Source: a virus (Duplodnaviria; Heunggongvirae; Uroviricota; Caudoviricetes). Taken from it: 10,585 nucleotides of DNA. The translations under genes were made by a program, and so were the position numbers. This document shows positions 1 to 9,726 of this stretch, in pieces. The DNA is taken from IMG/VR virus record IMGVR_UViG_2698536559_000013; one strand, written 5' to 3'. Position 1 is the stretch's first letter. Each line of letters starts with the position of its first letter. Below the pieces are notes generated by a model. It made no database searches. It had not been told where the DNA came from and worked only from the letters and a program-made list of their open reading frames with translations.

Positions 1-21
1 AATACGGTGCTCCGTTGACGC

Positions 22-3000
22 TTACGTTTTATCAACCACCAACGCACCATATTTAGACGGCCCAGATGTCTTAACATTCAATGCTCGACCACTTAATGCT
101 TCGCCTGACTTACTTTTCAACAGTAACGTAAATACCAGATTGTTGGTATCGCTCACTACAGCCGAAGATGCAGATGATGTGATCTCCAACACAGCCCCCT
201 TCACATCCGTTACGGCATCAATATTCTGGCTTGCGGTTATGCGTTTCCCATCCAGAACATACTCGGCCTGAATTGTGTACTGGCCTGATTTCGTTGCAGT
301 GAACTGCGTTGTTGCCTGTCCATGAGCATCCAGTTGCAGATTACTACTGGTCAATGATGCTCCCGTCGATGGTGTAATCGTTAAATCCACCTCGCCTGTA
401 AACGCATTGTTATTCGCATCAACCAACTGAATGTTTACTGTTGCGTTTTCACTGCCATCGGCCACAATCTCCTGTTTTGATACACTCATAGTAAGTTCTG
501 CAGAAGCAACATCGGGCACAAAAGTTAACTTAACGCTGCCAGATTCCACGCTATGGGAACCGTCAGTCACCCGTGCAGTCACCGTGTACTCACCAGCTTT
601 CACCGTTGTAAGCGGAACAGAAACATGCCCTGTTGAATCAGTCACGATATTTGTTGGTACAGATAATCCTTCAGATGAGGTGATGAGCTGAATCTTTTGC
701 CCATTGACCGACGCATTCGTATTTGTCAGCTGCACATCTAATACCGCTGCATCCTTACCATTAGCAGGAATATTGGAAATTAAACTACTGCTTTCAGGCG
801 TCAGTGACAGTGAAGCTCCGGTCATATTTGATGCAAAGGTCACTGTTAACTCAGTAGACATCTGAGAACCAGCATGAGCTGTAATCACGTAAGACCCCGG
901 AGTGGAGCTTATTAACGCAAAAATAGCATTACCATTTTCGTCAGTTGAAACAGCATGTTCACCACCAACTTGAGTTATCCCTGCTGGTAAAGACAATGTG
1001 ACAGCATAACCAGGAACAACATTGCCGAAACGGTCCGCAAGGCTTACAGTTACCATATTTCTCTGTTTTCCATCAGCCAATGCATTATTTTGGCTGGCTT
1101 CAAACTGAGAGAATGTAACCTGCTGCCGGTCCTCAATAAAGGTGATTTCTTTCTTAACACCTGAGAAATCATGACTATCAGATTTAACACCGATAGTAAT
1201 CTTACCAGCTCGTTTTGAAGTTACTGTCGCGCTATAGACACCGTCTTTTTCCGTTACAGTCCCAAACTCGACTCCTTCTGCCTGGTTAAGAGCATAAAAG
1301 CTCAGAGTGTTATCACCAGTGATTGCATTTCCTTGTGAATCCTTCACTGCCAGTTGTAGATTGATATTGTAACCAACTACCTGTTCTGCTGGTGCAGCGG
1401 TTAAAACAGCACTGACCTCAGAATCAGGTTCTGTTGCTGCTGTTTGCTTAATACTGAGAGTAAATGTTTTTCCCTGAACTTTTGCAGTTACACGTACCGT
1501 ACCAGCCTGCGAACCAGCAGTCAGAACAGAGTGATATACCCCAGCAGAGATTTCCTCTACCGCGCCTAATGACGGAGCAGTTACCGTTTCACGCTGTCGA
1601 GCACTATTGCTATCTGCTGTAAATTCCACTGACATTTCAATGTCATCAGCCAGTCCGGTTAATGCCTTACCGTTACTATCTTTCAGGCTTAATACTATCG
1701 GATAAGTGGATTGGCTATCAGCAGAGATCGTCGGCGACGAATCTCCATCCAGTGTAAAAGATGAATCCGCTGTCGAGACACCACTATTATTAACGCTGAT
1801 ATTCATAACGGCATAGTTGGAAACATTGCCTCTGTTATCCTGGACTGTGGCTCCAACATTCCACGAATTTACATCTCCGCTTTTATAAGCCGGTAAAGTG
1901 ATCTGCCATGATGTGCCATTTCCACTGATCTTACCGCCAGCCGCAGTGAATGCACTATCATTCCACTGTACAGACTTGATACCACCACTAGCATTGTTGA
2001 TTGTCAGTGTTACAGGGATGATTGATTCCCCCTCCCCCTGAACAGACTCTGGTAAGCTGATTTTCAGTGCATGCTTCTTCTTGTACTCCAGAACAATGTT
2101 GTTATTTCGTTCAACAAAATCATAACGCCGGTTCTGGACTTCTCGCATAACAGCAACATTGTCACTGCTAAGCTGTTCAGCAAGGGAAACGCCCGGGCGA
2201 TAATTAAACTCAACACCAAAGGTTGTATCGTGAACGTTGCTCTGTCCTTGCTTATGCTGTGCAGAAAACTTAATCAGAGGAACTGGTGTATAAGAAATTC
2301 CCCCAGTAACTGCGTAAGGGTTTTCCTGAAGATTATCGCTTCCAAATAACCCGACATTTTTACCATAATATTTTTCAAACTGAATGGATGCCCCTAATTG
2401 CGGATAAGCAGGTAGCCATCCTTCAGCAGAAAAATCCCAGCCATTTGCGGGTCTTTCCAGATAATCATCAATATCCCGACTGTTCTTCCAGTCAGACAAA
2501 CCAAAATAGGTATTTACACCAAGCCTGAAATAATCTCTCCAGTACTCAACCCCAAAACCTGCACGAGAGTGACTGCGACTTAAATCGTAATCATAGAAAA
2601 CATTCGCACCCAACATTGCGTTATCAGGAGTGAAATGACGAATCCCCAAACCAATATTGGTCTGATTTCGGTCATCAGTACGATGTAGTGATGTCTGACT
2701 GAATAGCACATAATCCTGAGTATCCAGCCATGGATATAAAAAGTCGAATGATGAATCCTTCAAGGAAAAAGAATCATCGACATTAAGCTTGATGCGCGCA
2801 TTGCCATATTGTTGCAACCAGTCGACGACCTCTTTTGTCGCCTGAGTTGATAAAGTATTTACAGCAAAACTACTTGCATTATTATTTGCTAGGCTCTGAC
2901 CTGCACTTGCTGCAAATGAGGCCACTTTATTTGCATGCTCATCGCTGGCATAAGTTTGCGTAACATCTTTATTACCAGATGATGCAAAACTGTTTGCTGG

Positions 3001-3102
3001 GATCAAAGAAAGAGAAACTGGAGATAATATCTGGGTAACAATTACCGACCATGTAATCGCGCCAGATGCAGTTTTTTTTAACTTTTTATTCACAGTGGTC
3101 AT
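22..3102 (-). CDS. Inverse autotransporter adhesin (intimin/invasin family), 1026 aa, apparently full length
   Basis: Long uninterrupted minus-strand ORF (stop TAA at 22-24, ATG at 3100-3102). N-terminus is hydrophobic and signal-peptide-like, followed by a sequence typical of the inverse-autotransporter beta-barrel domain (e.g. YDYDLSRSHSRAGFGVEYWRDYFRLGVNTYF, FGVEFNYRPGV). The rest is Ser/Thr/Val/Gly-rich, consistent with bacterial Ig-like (Big) repeat passenger domains. Family call is from recalled sequence features; domain boundaries were not computed. Confidence 0.85.
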   Translation of the reverse strand: MTTVNKKLKKTASGAITWSVIVTQILSPVSLSLIPANSFASSGNKDVTQTYASDEHANKVASFAASAGQSLANNNASSFAVNTLSTQATKEVVDWLQQYGNARIKLNVDDSFSLKDSSFDFLYPWLDTQDYVLFSQTSLHRTDDRNQTNIGLGIRHFTPDNAMLGANVFYDYDLSRSHSRAGFGVEYWRDYFRLGVNTYFGLSDWKNSRDIDDYLERPANGWDFSAEGWLPAYPQLGASIQFEKYYGKNVGLFGSDNLQENPYAVTGGISYTPVPLIKFSAQHKQGQSNVHDTTFGVEFNYRPGVSLAEQLSSDNVAVMREVQNRRYDFVERNNNIVLEYKKKHALKISLPESVQGEGESIIPVTLTINNASGGIKSVQWNDSAFTAAGGKISGNGTSWQITLPAYKSGDVNSWNVGATVQDNRGNVSNYAVMNISVNNSGVSTADSSFTLDGDSSPTISADSQSTYPIVLSLKDSNGKALTGLADDIEMSVEFTADSNSARQRETVTAPSLGAVEEISAGVYHSVLTAGSQAGTVRVTAKVQGKTFTLSIKQTAATEPDSEVSAVLTAAPAEQVVGYNINLQLAVKDSQGNAITGDNTLSFYALNQAEGVEFGTVTEKDGVYSATVTSKRAGKITIGVKSDSHDFSGVKKEITFIEDRQQVTFSQFEASQNNALADGKQRNMVTVSLADRFGNVVPGYAVTLSLPAGITQVGGEHAVSTDENGNAIFALISSTPGSYVITAHAGSQMSTELTVTFASNMTGASLSLTPESSSLISNIPANGKDAAVLDVQLTNTNASVNGQKIQLITSSEGLSVPTNIVTDSTGHVSVPLTTVKAGEYTVTARVTDGSHSVESGSVKLTFVPDVASAELTMSVSKQEIVADGSENATVNIQLVDANNNAFTGEVDLTITPSTGASLTSSNLQLDAHGQATTQFTATKSGQYTIQAEYVLDGKRITASQNIDAVTDVKGAVLEITSSASSAVVSDTNNLVFTLLLKSKSGEALSGRALNVKTSGPSKYGALVVDKT

Positions 3103-3351
3103 AGTTCAATCAACGTTATGAATATAATGAAAAAAATAACTGGTATGACAAGAGGCGCGAAATATACAGCTCGTTACAAAAAAATCAACTCAAAAATAAA
3201 ATAAAATCTCTGCATAAACTTTATGGCTAAATGATTTCACAACAATGGAAGAAAAATTTTGTTGCTCACGCAATCAATCATTTCGGGCGTTACAACTAGT
3301 CCTAGATTATATTCGCTAGGTATACTTTATTTTTAAGCTAATACTTTAGCT
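3103..3351 (-). promoter_or_regulatory. AT-rich upstream region of the adhesin gene; putative promoter/regulatory region
   Basis: About 250 bp of strongly AT-rich non-coding sequence between the stop of the P fragment and the adhesin start codon. No specific -35/-10 elements were confidently identified. Confidence 0.3.
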
Positions 3352-3912
3352 CTATTTCATCGCTCCTTTCAGCCCGAACTTAGCTTTGATTTCTGCGATC
3401 TTCGCCAGAGCCTGTGCACGATTTAGAGGTCTACCGCCCATGACAGGAAGTTGTTTTACTGGTTCAGGTATAGCCTCACCACGGTTAATTCGTGCGGTCA
3501 TACAGGACAGTTCATCGGCAGCCTTGCGCCGTAATTCCGCGTCAGTCAACGCATTGGCCCGCATGTTCTGATACAGGTTGGTAACCAGCCAGTAGTGCGC
3601 GTTTGATTTCCACGGATAAGACTCTGCATCCAGATACAGCCCGCGCTTCCGGCAATACTCGTAAACCATATCAACCAGCTCGCTGGCGTTTGGCAGTCCG
3701 GCGGTAACGGATGCTTCTTCCCGGCACCAGGCAACAAACTGCCCGGGTGATGGCAGGAATGGTCGATTCTGCCGACGGGCGACACGCACTCCGGCGCTCA
3801 CCTGTTCCATTGTGGTGATCCCGTTTTCCCGGAAAGCCAGAACCCACTGGCGGCGGATTTCGTTCAGTTCGTTCTGGTCCCGGTTAGCCAGGCTCGCCGG
3901 GAAAGTTGCCAG
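3352..3912 (-). pseudogene. P: C-terminal fragment of lambda replication protein P (about residues 48-233); first in-frame Met is at 3810, giving a 152-aa ORF
   Basis: Minus-strand translation reads LATFPASLANRDQNELNEIRRQWVLAFRENGITTMEQVSAGVRVARRQNRPFLPSPGQFVAWCREEASVTAGLP...RAQALAKIAEIKAKFGLKGAMK, which I recognise as near-identical to the C-terminal part of lambda P. In-frame sequence above about 3913 (RANHGYKCVRCRDADI) no longer matches P. The extreme C-terminus (GAMK) and downstream sequence also differ from lambda, where ren would follow. Confidence 0.85.
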
Positions 3913-3997
3913 TATATCTGCATCGCGGCATCGAACGCACTTATACCCGTGATTTGCTCGTGGAAGTTTTTCTCGACGGACGCGGTAACGGCCTGAA
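3913..3997. other. Junction segment of unknown origin between the P fragment and the gam-proximal lambda-like sequence
   Basis: P homology ends near 3913, and sequence I recognise as the region just upstream of lambda gam (tcactaa...cctgttttcctaatcagcccggcatttcgcgggcgatattttcacagc) begins near 3998. The roughly 85 bp between matches neither as far as I can recall. Confidence 0.4.
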
Positions 3998-4079
3998 TCA
4001 CTAATCTCCTTTCCTGTTTTCCTAATCAGCCCGGCATTTCGCGGGCGATATTTTCACAGCCATTTTCAGGAGTTCAGCC

Positions 4080-4376
4080 ATGAACGCTTATTACATTCAG
4101 GATCGTCTTGAGGCTCAGAGCTGGGCGCGTCACTACCAGCAGATCGCCCGTGAAGAGAAAGAGGCAGAACTGGCAGACGACATGGAAAAAGGCCTGCCCC
4201 AGCACCTGTTTGAATCGCTATGCATCGATCATTTGCAACGTCACGGGGCCAGCAAAAAAGCCATTACCCGTGCGTTTGATGACGATGTTGAGTTTCAGGA
4301 GCGCATGGCAGAACACATCCGGTACATGGTTGAAACCATTGCTCACCACCAGGTTGATATTGATTCAGAGGTATAA
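4080..4376 (+). CDS. gam: Gam (short GamS form, 98 aa), RecBCD inhibitor
   Basis: ORF translation [98 protein letters not shown] matches lambda Gam from its internal Met onward, with two substitutions relative to my recollection. Strong SD caggag sits 7 nt upstream of the ATG. Confidence 0.9.
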
Positions 4377-4381
4377 AACGA

Positions 4382-4911
4382 ATGAGTACTGCACTCGCAA
4401 CGCTGGCAGGGAAGCTGGCTGAACGTGTCGGCATGGATTCTGTCGACCCACAGGAACTGATCACCACTCTTCGCCAGACGGCATTTAAAGGTGATGCCAG
4501 CGATGCGCAGTTCATCGAAAAACCCGCGAAGGCAGAGAAATCACCGGACCGTGGCAGTCGCATCCCAAACGAATGTTGCGGCATAAAGCCATGATTCAGT
4601 GTGCCCGTCTGGCCTTCGGATTTGCTGGTATCTATGACAAGGATGAAGCCGAGCGCATTGTCGAAAATACTGCATACACTGCGGAACGTCAGCCGGAACG
4701 CGACATCACTCCGGTTAACGATGAAACCATGCAGGAGATTAACACTCTGCTGATCGCCCTGGATAAAACATGGGATGACGACTTATTGCCGCTCTGTTCC
4801 CAGATATTTCGCCGCGACATTCGCGCATCGTCAGAACTGACACAGGCCGAAGCAGTGAAAGCTCTTGGATTCCTGAAACAGAAAGCCACTGAGCAGAAGG
4901 TGGCAGCATGA
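4382..4911 (+). pseudogene. bet: bet (Red-beta single-strand annealing protein) disrupted by an internal out-of-frame deletion
   Basis: N-terminal 45 residues (MSTALATLAGKLAERVGMDSVDPQELITTLRQTAFKGDASDAQFI) match lambda Bet, then the frame reads non-Bet sequence to a stop at 4592-4594. The Bet C-terminal part (PKRMLRHKAMIQCARLAFGFAGIYDKDEAERIVENTAYTAERQPERD...[11 protein letters not shown]) continues in the +1 frame to 4911. The breakpoint lies near 4515-4520 (ttcatcg/aaaaacccgcgaagg). Confidence 0.85.
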
Positions 4912-5588
4912 CACCGGACATTATCCTGCAGCGTACCGGGATCGACGTGAGAGCTGTCGAACAGGGGGATGATGCATGGCACAAATTACGGCTCGGCGTC
5001 ATCACCGCTTCAGAAGTTCATAACGTGATAGCAAAGCCCCGATCAGGAAAGAAGTGGCCTGACATGAAAATGTCCTACTTCCACACCCTGCTGGCTGAGG
5101 TTTGCACCGGTGTGGCTCCGGAAGTTAATGCTAAGGCGCTGGCCTGGGGAAAACAGTACGAGAACGACGCCAGAACTCTGTTTGAATTCACTTCCGGCGT
5201 GAATGTTACTGAATCCCCGATCATCTATCGCGACGAAAGTATGCGCACCGCCTGCTCTCCCGATGGTTTATGCAGTGACGGCAATGGCCTTGAGCTGAAA
5301 TGCCCGTTTACCTCCCGGGATTTCATGAAGTTCCGGCTCGGTGGTTTCGAGGCCATAAAGTCGGCTTACATGGCCCAGGTGCAGTACAGCATGTGGGTGA
5401 CGCGAAAAGATGCCTGGTACTTTGCCAACTATGACCCGCGTATGAAGCGTGAAGGACTGCATTATGTCGTGGTTGAGCGGGATGAAAAGTACATGGCGAG
5501 TTTTGACGAGATGGTGCCGGAGTTCATCGAAAAAATGGACGAGGCACTGGCTGAAATTGGTTTTGTATTTGGGGAGCAATGGCGATGA
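4908..5588 (+). CDS. exo: Lambda-type exonuclease (Red-alpha, Exo), 226 aa
   Basis: Full-length ORF whose translation ([65 protein letters not shown]...[15 protein letters not shown]) matches lambda Exo with a few substitutions. ATGA start/stop overlap with bet, as in lambda. Confidence 0.95.
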
Positions 5589-5767
5589 AGCATCCTCACG
5601 ATAATATCCGGGTAGGCGCGATCACTTTCGTCTACTCCGTTACAAAGCGAGGCTGGGTATTTCCCGGCCTTTCTGTTATCCGAAATCCCCTGAAAGCACA
5701 GCGGCTGGCTGAGGAGATAAATAATAAACGGGGAGCTGTATGCACAAAGCATCTCCCGTTGAGTTAA
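5585..5767 (+). CDS. orf60a: Lambda orf60a-like small protein (60 aa from the ATG overlapping the exo stop; an upstream ATG at 5579 would give 62 aa)
   Basis: Translation [57 protein letters not shown]... matches my recollection of lambda orf60a. ATGA overlap with the exo stop. Confidence 0.7.
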
Positions 5768-5931
5768 GAACGAGTATCGAGATGGCACATAGCCTCGCTC
5801 AAATTGGAGTCAGGTTTGTGCCAATACCAGTAGAAACAGACGAAGAATTTCATACGTTAGCCGCATCCCTTTCACAAAAGCTGGAAATGATGGTGGCGAA
5901 AGCAGAAGCAGATGAGAGAGACCAGGTATGA
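5740..5931 (+). CDS. orf63: Lambda orf63-like small protein (63 aa)
   Basis: ORF of exactly 63 codons ([63 protein letters not shown]) in the position of orf63 of the lambda early-left operon. Overlaps the 3' end of orf60a in another frame. Confidence 0.7.
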   Translation: MHKASPVELRTSIEMAHSLAQIGVRFVPIPVETDEEFHTLAASLSQKLEMMVAKAEADERDQV

Positions 5932-6011
5932 CAACCACTGAATGCATTTTTCTGGCAGCGGTCTTCATATTCTGTGTGCTTATGCTTGCCGACATGGGAC
6001 TTGTTCAATGA
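5928..6011 (+). CDS. Candidate 27-aa hydrophobic small protein (MTTTECIFLAAVFIFCVLMLADMGLVQ)
   Basis: Below the ORF-track size cutoff. Its ATG overlaps the orf63 stop as ATGA (5928-5931) and its stop overlaps the orf61 start as ATGA (6008-6011). The core is strongly hydrophobic, consistent with a single transmembrane helix. Confidence 0.4.
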   Translation: MTTTECIFLAAVFIFCVLMLADMGLVQ

Positions 6012-6223
6012 CACCTCAGCAAGAAAACGCCCTTCGCAGCATTGCCCATCTGGCTAATTATGAAATCAAAAAAGCCAGACAGCAGTTTCCGGATAAAAAC
6101 GTCGATGACATTTGCCGTAGCGTACTGAAGAAGCACCGCGAAACGGTAACGCTGATGGGATTCACACCGACTCATTTAAGCCTGGCGATCGGCATGTTAA
6201 ACGGCGTCTTTAAGGAACGGTGA
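6008..6223 (+). CDS. orf61: Lambda orf61-like small protein (71 aa from this ATG)
   Basis: Translation MTPQQENALRSIAHLANYEIKKARQQFPDKNVDDICRSVLKKHRETVTLMGFTPTHLSLAIGMLNGVFKER; position and sequence are consistent with lambda orf61. The track ORF starts at an upstream ATG (5942), but the ATGA-coupled start at 6008 is more plausible. Confidence 0.65.
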   Translation: MTPQQENALRSIAHLANYEIKKARQQFPDKNVDDICRSVLKKHRETVTLMGFTPTHLSLAIGMLNGVFKER

Positions 6224-6225
6224 GC

Positions 6226-6315
6226 ATGAAAAACAAAATCATCATGGAGCTACAGGCTCCTTTTTTATTATTCGCATTCACCCTCAAGCGTATTAACCAA
6301 CAATTCAGGGATTAA
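6226..6315 (+). CDS. Candidate 29-aa small ORF (MKNKIIMELQAPFLLFAFTLKRINQQFRD)
   Basis: Short ORF filling the gap between orf61 and orf73, with aagga about 9 nt upstream of the ATG. No homology recognised; could be non-coding spacer. Confidence 0.2.
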   Translation: MKNKIIMELQAPFLLFAFTLKRINQQFRD

Positions 6316-6321
6316 TGAAAG

Positions 6322-6543
6322 ATGGCAGACATCATTGATTCAGCATCAGAAATTGAAGAATTACAGCGCAACACAGCAATAAAAATGCGCCGCCTGAACC
6401 ACCAGGCTATATCTGCCACTCATTGTTGTGAGTGTGGCGATCCGATAGATGAACGAAGACGTCTGGCCGTTCAGGGTTGTCGGACTTGTGCAAGTTGCCA
6501 GGAAGATCTGGAGCTTATCAGTAAACAGAGAGGTTCGAAGTGA
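6322..6543 (+). CDS. orf73: TraR/DksA-family C4 zinc-finger protein (lambda orf73-like), 73 aa
   Basis: 73-aa ORF with two Cys pairs (CCECGDP...CRTCASC) typical of the TraR/DksA zinc finger. Position matches lambda orf73. Confidence 0.8.
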   Translation: MADIIDSASEIEELQRNTAIKMRRLNHQAISATHCCECGDPIDERRRLAVQGCRTCASCQEDLELISKQRGSK

Positions 6544-7088
6544 GCGAAATTAACTCTCAGGCACTGCGTGAAGCGGCAGAGCAGGCAATGCATGACGACT
6601 GGGGATTTGATGCGGACCTTTTCCATGAGCTGGTAACACCATCGATTGTGCTGGCGCTGCTGGATGAACGGGAATCCCAAAACAAGCGTATTGCAGAACT
6701 GGAGAAAAGCGAAGAGCAACTCATTAACGAGCGTGACCATGCTGAGTCTGCTTTAGATGATATGTACTTTGCAGCAACCGGTAACAGGCCGGAGTGGAGC
6801 AACTGGTTCGGCTTTTCAGATGCTGTCGATGCCGTGGTTGACAGAATTGCTGATTTAGAAGCTAAACAATGCATTGAAGAGATGAGTAAACAAAGTTGCG
6901 AAGCTCGGGAGCGTGATTTGTTTGAATCATGGGTAATGCATTCAATTTGTATTTCCAAATCGACGCTTGAAGGATTGCGCACCGAAACTGGATACCGTAA
7001 CGCGACCTTATCAGGAACAGACTTCAACCGCATGTGGGAACAATGGAAATCTATCCGCGCTGCTGGTATTCGCATCAAAGGAGACTGA
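6540..7088 (+). CDS. ea22: Ea22-like protein, 182 aa (GTG start)
   Basis: 182-codon ORF whose N-terminus MSEINSQALREAAEQAMHDDWGFDADLFHELVTPSIVL matches my recollection of lambda Ea22. GTG start overlaps the orf73 stop (GTGA). Central region is coiled-coil-like and charged. Confidence 0.8.
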   Translation: MSEINSQALREAAEQAMHDDWGFDADLFHELVTPSIVLALLDERESQNKRIAELEKSEEQLINERDHAESALDDMYFAATGNRPEWSNWFGFSDAVDAVVDRIADLEAKQCIEEMSKQSCEARERDLFESWVMHSICISKSTLEGLRTETGYRNATLSGTDFNRMWEQWKSIRAAGIRIKGD

Positions 7089-7089
7089 T

Positions 7090-7299
7090 ATGGCTATTGC
7101 CGCAAGTTATACCATGCATCTCTATTGTGATTGTCGCCAGTGTACGGAAGGTGTATATCCAGTGCCAGACTTCGGTGAGTATATCGGTACGTCATGGTCT
7201 GGTTGTGCAAAAGAGGCCCGTAAAGATGGGTGGCGAATAAGCAAAGACAAAACACGTACTTTTGCGCCCGGGCATAAAGTTTTGAGGATTAACACATGA
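7090..7299 (+). CDS. ea8.5: Ea8.5-like Cys-rich small protein (69 aa from the ATG at 7090)
   Basis: ORF with the Cys motif HLYCDCRQCTEG...SGCAKEARKDGW in the position of lambda ea8.5. SD aaggag immediately upstream of the 7090 ATG. The track's longer version (from 6967) overlaps ea22 out of frame and is less likely. Confidence 0.7.
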   Translation: MAIAASYTMHLYCDCRQCTEGVYPVPDFGEYIGTSWSGCAKEARKDGWRISKDKTRTFAPGHKVLRINT

Positions 7300-8078
7300 C
7301 CACTATTACCAAAGAACGTATTGAATTGTTCATTAAAAATCCGCTTGAAAACGGGCTTACTCGTGGCGAACAAATGGAACTGGCACGAATTGCACTGGCA
7401 TCACTGGAACGCGAACAGATTCGCCACGAGCATGCCAAATGGTCTGACTCCACATTTGGCTGCGTTGGCCCCATTGGTCCACTGAAACACCTCTCAAAAG
7501 AGGCACTGGAAGCCGCAGCCGAACCAGACGATCTTAGCGAGTGGGCTGATATGCAGTTTCTGTTGTGGGATGCACAACGCCGTGCTGGCATCAGCGATGC
7601 TGAAATTAACGTTGCTATGGAAGATAAATTGAAGATCAACATGGAGCGCCAGTGGCCTGAGCCAAAAGATGGTGAGCCTCGCTTGCACATTAAAGAACCC
7701 GGCAACTCTCCGGTAATTCCGGATGGTTTATCCACGGTATGCGCTGAGGCTTATCAGGTTGTAGGAGTTATGGCAGATGCGCTTGGTGTATTCGGTGATG
7801 CAGCAGTACAGAAAGTTCTGGATAACCTGTCACAGCAAAAACTTGTTCACAGAGATGTGCTGCCGTTCTCGCTTCCGGTAACTCCGGATAGTTGGATAAG
7901 CTGTAGTGAGCGAATGCCGAACGACGCGCAGTGGTGCGTAGTGAACACAGAATACGGGTATTACGCGCAATGCTGGTCTGAAGGTCAAGGGTGGCTTGGT
8001 GATGATATCAGCATCCCTGAATGCGATGTAATCAATTGGATGCCACTACCAGAACCGCCGCAGGAGGTGAATCAATGA
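7296..8078 (+). CDS. Phage accessory protein with an N-terminal MazG-like (DUF550, dATP/dGTP pyrophosphohydrolase-type) domain and a C-terminal DUF551-like Cys/Trp-rich domain, 260 aa
   Basis: ATGA overlap with the ea8.5 stop; SD gagga 7 nt upstream. The N-terminal half carries acidic helix motifs (KEALEAAAEPDDLSEWADMQFLLWDAQRRAG) resembling all-alpha NTP pyrophosphohydrolases. The C-terminal half (WISCSERMPNDAQWCVVNTEYGYYAQCWSEGQGWLGDDISIPECDVINWMPLPEPP) resembles DUF551. Domain calls are from memory of motifs, not a profile search. Confidence 0.75.
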   Translation: MTTITKERIELFIKNPLENGLTRGEQMELARIALASLEREQIRHEHAKWSDSTFGCVGPIGPLKHLSKEALEAAAEPDDLSEWADMQFLLWDAQRRAGISDAEINVAMEDKLKINMERQWPEPKDGEPRLHIKEPGNSPVIPDGLSTVCAEAYQVVGVMADALGVFGDAAVQKVLDNLSQQKLVHRDVLPFSLPVTPDSWISCSERMPNDAQWCVVNTEYGYYAQCWSEGQGWLGDDISIPECDVINWMPLPEPPQEVNQ

Positions 8079-8158
8079 GCTGGCCTGAAGCATTCGCAAC
8101 GGTAGGAATTGCAATGGCGGTAGCACTGGTTTTGTATTCAATTTGTCGCTGGGGATAA
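8075..8158 (+). CDS. Candidate 27-aa membrane peptide (MSWPEAFATVGIAMAVALVLYSICRWG)
   Basis: ATGA overlap with the stop of the 260-aa gene; SD-like caggaggtga 5-14 nt upstream. Hydrophobic core consistent with one transmembrane helix. Below the ORF-track cutoff. Confidence 0.4.
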   Translation: MSWPEAFATVGIAMAVALVLYSICRWG

Positions 8159-8279
8159 CGATGATGCTCATGCGGAAATCATCAAAAAAATGGAACTGCT
8201 AACATGATTTAGGTGGGAGCCTGGAAGATGGCTCCACATATCAACATAGATTATTTCAGGATTCCATATTTTAACTAAT

Positions 8280-9164
8280 CTAAGTTCGACTATTTGGGGC
8301 ATTGATATGCTGTAAATGATGCTTAAGCCAATTTCCAGCCGCGCCTGGTGGCGATTTTTTATTCCAAAGCAGATCGATAGAAATTGCCTTTGGCCAGCCA
8401 GGTACGTCGAGCTGAACCAGCGGTTTTTCTGTTGCAAACTCCTCAACCAGAGCACAGGGCAGAGAGCACCAGCCAAATCCCTGTACGGCCATACTGAGTA
8501 ACAACAAATAGTTAGGTGCAGACCAAACCGGTCCACGGGCAATCATCTCCCGGTTATCGATATAAGTATTAAGACGAAGTTCTCGCCATGAATGAAGTTG
8601 TTCCCGCTGGATTGTTTTTTCTGCAGACAGTGGATGTGACGCCGAAACATAAATGCCCATCCACGCTTGCATCGGTAAACGGGTTGAGCCAATATCGGTG
8701 GGGTAGTGTTCCCGAGACTCAATTAAGCCGATCTGCGCTCGTTCTTTTTGCAAAAGATCGATGACATCGACATCCTCACCAATTAAAACCTCTAACTCAG
8801 TATGTGGAAACTGACTATCAAACTGCACCATGATGTCTTCTAATAAGTCAGGGTGTAGGGTATCGGAAAGCACAAACGTCAGACGAGCTTCAGTCTCTCC
8901 GGCAAGCGAAACCGCCACCTCCTCAAGACGTTCACTGGCTGACAAAATCGCATGAACGTAACTCAATACTTTCTTTCCTTCCTCTGTCAGCACAGGTTCT
9001 CGCGAAGAGCGATCGAATAATGATATACCAAGATCGACCTCAAGATTGGCAATTGACGTACTGACTGCGGACTGACTTTTGCGTAATCTTCGTGCCGCAG
9101 CAGAAAAGGAGCCACAGGAAACCGCTTCAACAAATGTACTTAACGCTTCAAGTGAGTAACGCAT
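8280..9164 (-). CDS. LysR-family transcriptional regulator, 294 aa
   Basis: N-terminal HTH typical of LysR-type regulators (LEALSTFVEAVSCGSFSAAARRLRKSQSAVSTSIANLEVDLGISLFDRSSREPVLTEEG) followed by a co-inducer-binding-type domain. Transcribed divergently from the adjacent transporter gene. Confidence 0.9.
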   Translation of the reverse strand: MRYSLEALSTFVEAVSCGSFSAAARRLRKSQSAVSTSIANLEVDLGISLFDRSSREPVLTEEGKKVLSYVHAILSASERLEEVAVSLAGETEARLTFVLSDTLHPDLLEDIMVQFDSQFPHTELEVLIGEDVDVIDLLQKERAQIGLIESREHYPTDIGSTRLPMQAWMGIYVSASHPLSAEKTIQREQLHSWRELRLNTYIDNREMIARGPVWSAPNYLLLLSMAVQGFGWCSLPCALVEEFATEKPLVQLDVPGWPKAISIDLLWNKKSPPGAAGNWLKHHLQHINAPNSRT

Positions 9165-9267
9165 AATCTATCAATTTTTTCGATGGTATCTATCTTTTAT
9201 ATATCACATAAATCGATAAAAATCTCACAACTCCATAACGCGGTCGAAACTGTAAGAAAGGTAAGTT
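9165..9267. promoter_or_regulatory. Divergent intergenic control region between the LysR gene and the PACE transporter gene
   Basis: 103-bp AT-rich spacer between divergent start codons. Contains an imperfect inverted repeat, tttttcgat (9176-9184) and atcgataaaaa (9213-9223), as might serve a LysR-type operator. No promoter elements were verified. Confidence 0.4.
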
Positions 9268-9726
9268 ATGCAACATAATGCGATTCAACGCAGATCGTTA
9301 CTTGAGCGTATTTTTCACGCTATTTGCTTTGAAGGAATTGCCACTGCGATTCTGGCCCCCACCACAGCATGGTTAATGCAGCGAACTATACTCGAAATGG
9401 GCGGGATGACTATCTTGTTGGCTTCAACTGCAATGATCTGGAATATCATCTATAACATGCTATTTGATCGCTACTGGCCTGCTCATCAGGTAAAACGAAC
9501 TGCAAAAGTTCGTGCATTCCATGCTTTGGGCTTTGAAAGTGGATTTATCGCGATCGGCGTCATTATGGTGTCCTGGATTCTGAGCGTCAGTCTGTTACAG
9601 GCTTTTACACTAGAGATAGGATTCTTCCTTTTCTTTCTACCATATACCATGTTCTACAATTGGGCCTATGACAGCTTACGTTTACGTGTTGTGAAACAGC
9701 ATCAACAACGTATGCTTGCCAGATAA
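9268..9726 (+). CDS. PACE-family (AceI-like) small efflux transporter, 152 aa
   Basis: Two tandem repeats each beginning with the R-x-x-h-A-x-x-F-E motif (ERIFHAICFEG and VRAFHALGFESG), plus WNxxYNxxFD-like motifs (MIWNIIYNMLFD, MFYNWAYD) and four predicted hydrophobic helices. Divergent LysR partner, as in aceR-aceI. Confidence 0.8.
   Translation: MQHNAIQRRSLLERIFHAICFEGIATAILAPTTAWLMQRTILEMGGMTILLASTAMIWNIIYNMLFDRYWPAHQVKRTAKVRAFHALGFESGFIAIGVIMVSWILSVSLLQAFTLEIGFFLFFLPYTMFYNWAYDSLRLRVVKQHQQRMLAR

Follow-up and report, generated by a model that had tools for sequence, protein, structure and literature searches.

A probable pseudogene remnant of the lambdoid helicase-loader gene P at a deletion breakpoint in a thrW-linked Escherichia coli prophage

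The DNA analysed here (the window) is a stretch of 10,585 nucleotides from the virus record IMGVR_UViG_2698536559_000013. Two local differences aside, it is 100% identical to complete genomes of E. coli such as NZ_CP039404 and NZ_CP027550, in which it forms part of a ~17 kb remnant of a lambdoid, DLP12-like prophage adjoining the thrW tRNA-Thr gene beside proA. The genes of this remnant are, in order, integrase, IS3, a PACE transporter, a LysR regulator, early-left genes, exo, bet, gam, a fragment of the replication gene P (termed P' below), an adhesin, an alpha/beta hydrolase, ybcN, ninE, ybcO and a second IS3. No immunity, replication, lysis or structural genes were found in the remnant; IS elements are present. 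The features surrounding P' are collected in Table 1.

Table 1. Position and identification of P' and of the features around it in the window.
Feature	Position	Strand	Basis
Inverse-autotransporter (intimin/invasin-type) adhesin	22-3102	-	Pfam: IAT_beta (E 3.3e-101), Big_1, Invasin_D3
Spacer, AT-rich (28-36% G+C)	3103-3351	-	P stop to adhesin start; G+C profile
P', 3' remnant of P gene	3352-3914	-	Second base of codon 47 to stop; PF06992, 8V9T, DNA identity to intact P
152-aa ORF	3352-3810	-	First in-frame canonical start, ATG = Met82
Deletion junction	3914-3915	.	BLAST of the window against L002 and L003; junction sequences inspected
kil'	3915-4004	+	Last 29 codons and stop, no start; translation equals C-terminus of L003 kil product
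gam, intact, 98 aa	4080-4376	+	Pfam Gam (E 3.4e-65), full length; first complete gene beyond the junction

P' encodes the C-terminal four-fifths (residues ~47/48-233) of the lambda replication protein P. The Pfam family Phage_lambda_P (PF06992) was matched with an E-value of 4.7e-43 and a score of 147 bits (cut-off 26), the match covering only positions 46-162 of the 162 in the profile, and the 189 codons of 3352-3921 aligned with residues 46-231 of the lambda P chain in PDB 8V9T (233 aa; E 3.4e-118). A preliminary description of this DNA had reported an orphan C-terminal P fragment at 3352-3912; Pfam, the structure and DNA homology all agree with this identification, and the upper limit was right to within 2 nt, DNA homology to intact P ending exactly at 3914. 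The internal methionine at 3810, described as opening a 152-aa ORF, was recovered both in the ORF listing and in the alignment. Upstream of this codon the P frame runs on without a stop until about 4056, and no ATG, GTG or TTG occurs in it, so that no fusion protein is expected across the junction. The adhesin gene was said to follow about 250 bp downstream on the same strand, and the distance from the end of the ORF to the adhesin start at 3102 was measured as 249 bp. In public genomes the fragment is already annotated as a pseudogene: RefSeq/PGAP labels 3352-3921 'replication protein P, incomplete, missing N-terminus' in L001, L005 and L006. The finding is thus real but ordinary.

Intact sister prophages, found in many E. 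coli genomes, carry the adhesin, a P gene of 233 aa, an O-like replication protein, YdaT, a Cro-like regulator, a repressor, in some cases a hypothetical gene, then kil, gam, bet and exo. When the window was compared with two of these relatives (L002 and L003), it was found to be 97.8-98.1% identical in DNA to their P genes up to 3914, and identity resumed at 3915. The O-like gene, ydaT/cII, cro and the repressor, present in both L002 and L003, are absent from the window, and the sequence missing at the junction amounts to 3496 bp when L003 is the reference and to 4307 bp when it is L002. The preliminary description had proposed alignment to lambda P as the means of fixing the breakpoint; homology starts at codon 47, and the breakpoint lies at 3914|3915, where P nt 139/140 are joined to kil nt 117/118. 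The join is blunt: on inspection, the sequences at the junction showed no IS scar and 0 bp of microhomology. As would be expected of a remnant, P' has a defined breakpoint, is truncated in comparison with intact homologues, and lies in a prophage stripped of essential modules.

On the other side of the junction lies the end of kil, a phage cell-division inhibitor gene. The two pieces, kil' and P', stand back to back, each deprived of promoter and 5' end. The preliminary description did not list kil', the second gene fragment orphaned here. A 45-aa ORF also runs over the junction (3864-4001, - strand), antisense to kil' and then out of frame in P'; it has a GTG start with AGGAG 4 nt upstream, no promoter-like site was found upstream of it, and it is most likely a chance ORF.

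Other genes of the remnant are damaged as well. In the window, bet (4382-4911) has suffered a 257-bp internal deletion at 4517-4519, leaving an odd single base at 4518 and splitting the gene into ORFs of 70 and 112 aa; this deletion was seen in no complete genome sharing the P'/kil' junction, and no direct repeat was found flanking it. In L005 it is exo that is frameshifted. The adhesin ORF of the window ends at 1026 aa, as compared with 1183-1421 aa in relatives, and is cut by an IS66-family end: window positions 1-25 are foreign to the adhesin gene and equal the reverse complement of L001 3187-3211, an IS66-family end next to tnpC. The IS66 sites in the adhesins of the window and of L001 are 232 bp apart and are therefore independent insertions. 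The genes around P' decay independently, lineage by lineage.

The adhesin belongs to an AT-rich cargo block (window 22-3351; L002 3655-9000), which carries it together with a divergent alpha/beta hydrolase gene between P and ybcN/ninE, at the position where lambda has ren and ninA-D. The block is widespread in E. coli prophages, and both it and the spacer are absent from the sequenced phage records searched, which match only 3362-3914; the cargo boundary accordingly falls at ~3361/3362, within the last codons of P. These codons are replaced by the block, the protein ending in GAMK instead of GASV. Two divergently oriented genes located between the early-left genes and the integrase (8280-9726), one for a LysR-family regulator and one for an efflux transporter of the PACE family (BTP), are probably further cargo.

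In comparison with the intact P gene of L002, the fragment displays 13 synonymous and 4 non-synonymous differences (N86S, M89V, P141L and A183S). The synonymous excess would reflect divergence of the alleles before the deletion. In 90 full-length P representatives collected by a protein search, position 89 is methionine in 85 and valine in none, while position 141 is proline in 83 and leucine, again, in 0/90; P141 lies within a segment (131-141) that contacts DnaB. A second sublineage carrying the junction (L005, ~0.3% diverged) has acquired a single further change, which is non-synonymous (M129I); these events are too few for dN/dS. The ORF is open in both the window type and the L005 type, and as only ~1-2 substitutions are expected in 459 nt, an open frame is predicted by neutrality and is uninformative. 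The replacements M89V, P141L and M129I may point to relaxed constraint, although they are too few to be tested formally. Of the 17 positions at which the fragment departs from its nearest intact P, six fall at 3785-3798, within the seven P codons 85-91 (V85, N86S, A87, M89V, R90 and V91); this cluster seems to reflect a short stretch recombined from a different P allele and not a series of separate mutations. The M89V change, in addition, introduces a GTG in frame.

The start at 3810 had been called usable, a description which the expression signals did not bear out. Promoter and terminator scans were run at consensus level over 3000-8400, and at this level weak or read-through antisense transcription could still pass undetected. 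Promoter prediction over the fragment, as had been proposed, yielded no sigma-70-like site on the - strand between 3811 and 5460, and the counts of promoter-like sites (3 against 1.8, and 3 against 4.5, in shuffled sequence) were taken as being at shuffle expectation. There is no co-directional gene upstream of P' until the LysR gene at 8280-9164 (-), the genes between being on the + strand. In the 20 nt before the ATG at 3810 the anti-Shine-Dalgarno pairing energy was -4.1 kcal/mol, a value matched or bettered at 24% of the positions in the region, as compared with -6.9 to -7.3 kcal/mol for gam, bet and exo. The fragment also lacks the operon context of a functional loader, namely an O-type initiator and origin adjacent upstream and transcription from pR, and, by the consensus-level tests, expression signals of its own for the retained ORF. 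The promoter and Shine-Dalgarno results thus argue against dedicated expression of P', with weak read-through as the remaining route.

The functional potential of the fragment was considered in the light of the domain structure of lambda P, which comprises domain I (1-29, the N-terminal lasso), domain II (~30-119), domain III (~120-192) and domain IV (193-233, the C-terminal lasso) (PMC12661323). Domain II builds the pentameric P ensemble, whereas domains III and IV bind DnaB, occupying its subunit interfaces and the DH-LH nexus; repeated contacts are made by the domain III segments 131-141, 145-162 and 169-174 and by the helix 211-227 (PMC12661323). Domain I and the first half of domain II (codons 1-46) are lost from the DNA, and residues 1-81 from the ORF, since homology sets in at codon 47 and no start in frame precedes Met82; a functional loader would need these parts. 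The 152-aa ORF contains the last 38 residues of domain II and the complete domains III and IV, differing from lambda P at 8 positions over residues 82-233 (~95% identity), and the solved lambda P structures, at this identity, already span it. It had been claimed that the O-interacting N-terminus is missing and that the DnaB-binding part is retained, and both statements hold: the part of P to which O binding is assigned (PMC6022878) is gone, and residues 120-233 are kept with all of the contact segments. Three of these (145-162, 169-174 and 211-227) are identical to lambda, and 131-141 differs only by P141L. An alignment lacking the DnaB-interacting region, which had been named as grounds for abandoning the proposal, was therefore not what was obtained.

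One possible meaning of this retained region is that the Met82 fragment is produced in small amounts and, by binding DnaB, works as a decoy which excludes superinfecting lambdoid phages or modulates host replication. Its domains III and IV would sit at the DnaB interfaces, but without the lasso and most of domain II it could not open or load the helicase. We consider this highly improbable. The preserved contact segments and the presence of an intact ORF on 47 contigs speak for it, as does the behaviour of lambda P 103-233, which is N-terminally truncated like the fragment and yet interacts robustly with DnaB in co-expression pull-downs (Chase et al. 2018, PMC6391071); that protein was over-expressed together with DnaB from T7 vectors, so the experiment shows binding capacity and not an in vivo effect at native levels. 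Against a decoy stand the absence of expression signals described above, the replacement by M89V and P141L of residues at conserved positions, and the probable behaviour of the protein itself. Lambda P on its own is reported to dissolve poorly, the soluble constructs being ones that start at residues 105-110; as a start at Met82 leaves a broken domain II, the fragment may fold poorly. All copies of the fragment are, moreover, clonal, and there is therefore no sign of selection.

The only functional test bearing on the question is, in our assessment, that of P-delta76, an in-frame loss of residues 9-86, which displayed no P-lethality, ColE1 curing or replication complementation (Hayes et al. 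2013, PMC3640518). P-delta76 loses almost exactly what the Met82 ORF lacks, and domains III and IV are kept in both; it differs in retaining residues 1-8 and in having been expressed from pR on a plasmid. The 2025 structure paper reads the 9-86 deletion as disrupting the complex through a lost contact of the N-terminal lasso (PMC12661323). With this analogue negative, the suggested effect of the fragment on replication or on phage exclusion is not supported. A narrower version, in which Met82-233 produced by read-through or cryptic transcription would be a non-toxic DnaB decoy weakening helicase capture by the P protein of an incoming lambdoid or Stx phage, appears more doubtful still by a small margin. 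For the decoy and exclusion idea as a whole we found no positive evidence and one negative experimental analogue, and would give it very little credence. If true, it would make of the fragment a domesticated prophage remnant acting as a superinfection-exclusion factor.

A different role, for the DNA rather than for a protein, would be that P' has been retained to serve the adhesin as a 5' leader or as part of its upstream regulatory region. All of the intact relatives examined have the adhesin directly downstream of P and in the same orientation, and the deletion spared the spacer entirely, along with the 563 bp upstream. Promoter-like sites facing the adhesin, however, were confined to the spacer, downstream of P' (two sigma-70-like sites, 3188-3161 and 3151-3124), and a search of 2900-4500 against Rfam at a permissive E-value gave no match. 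In the window and in L001 the adhesin gene is broken, which makes it doubtful that its regulation is under selection in such strains. Retention of P' as a leader therefore seems to us hardly more than a long shot.

The junction was found in 7 of 5426 complete genomes, those of human, dog, soil and water isolates, and on contigs of several sequencing projects, strains 2015C-4136CT1, 377323_2f and SC477 being among its carriers; the exact 152-aa product is recorded on the 47 contigs mentioned above, and all 8 of the places listed have the context gam-P'-adhesin. This distribution points to one event, clonally inherited. That the junction might be an artefact of assembly or sequencing is refuted by its identical occurrence in 7 independently finished E. 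coli genomes and on these contigs, and has next to no probability.

Other truncated P proteins are common: in the protein collection, many entries named 'replication protein P, partial' measure 87-195 aa. Other 152-aa Met82 ORFs are also on record (e.g. P0122, on 109 contigs), and these are either P genes with a frameshifted 5' third in otherwise intact early regions, or partials at contig edges. Convergent retention of Met82 ORFs was rejected on this ground, and such copies therefore offer no evidence of function. A closer parallel is peaD (b4508) of the DLP12 prophage of E. coli K-12, likewise a C-terminal remnant of P, where an internal deletion joined the recombination-gene side to P and, as in the thrW element, also removed the immunity and replication region. 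In DLP12 the genes exoD', peaD and renD follow in order, and all three are annotated pseudogenes. The two cases differ in that peaD retains only P residues 131-233, and in that its left partner is exo as against kil; DLP12 lies at argU and has ren downstream of P, whereas this element lies at thrW and has the adhesin cargo after P. No paper dealing with peaD together with DLP12 was found in the literature searched. Set against lambda gpP itself (DnaB helicase loader; PF06992; PDB 6BBM, 8V9T and 9OA1), P' has domains III and IV in common, is without the O partner, the origin, pR and the native start, and carries M89V and P141L.

Taken together, these comparisons lead us to regard P' as very probably an inert pseudogene remnant of the helicase-loader gene in a decaying, thrW-linked lambdoid prophage. 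It would have arisen by a single illegitimate, blunt-ended deletion (~3.5-4.3 kb) of the prophage control and replication region, which would have taken P codons 1-46, the O-like initiator and the origin, ydaT/cII, cro, the repressor, a further gene and the 5' 117 nt of kil. As the promoter pR would have gone with it, together with the start codon and ribosome-binding site of P, nothing would drive P', and the Met82 ORF would be merely the first ATG remaining in an otherwise open frame. The fragment would survive because it is located between the deletion endpoint and the adhesin cargo, and not through use. The loss of kil, of O and the origin, and of a functional P would remove toxic and replicative-killing functions (the concepts are those of PMC3640518, the step being ours), and since a particle-less prophage would be rid of such functions, the deletion may have been tolerated or favoured. 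The evidence favours the fallback offered in the preliminary description, namely that the fragment is no more than a pseudogene at the breakpoint of a deletion.

Were the fragment expressed, it would provide a natural test of whether loader domains III and IV alone modulate DnaB in vivo, and P-delta76 argues against any such effect. Under the name 'replication protein P', the Met82 ORF (152 aa) is often listed by gene callers, as happens whenever the front of P is broken; it is better labelled a pseudogene, and beyond such annotation hygiene the fragment matters little. It very probably fixes the right-hand breakpoint of the deletion by which the thrW-linked prophage was inactivated, and would exemplify a recurrent route of prophage decay, in which the immunity and replication block is lost and the recombination and cargo genes are kept, as in DLP12 of K-12.
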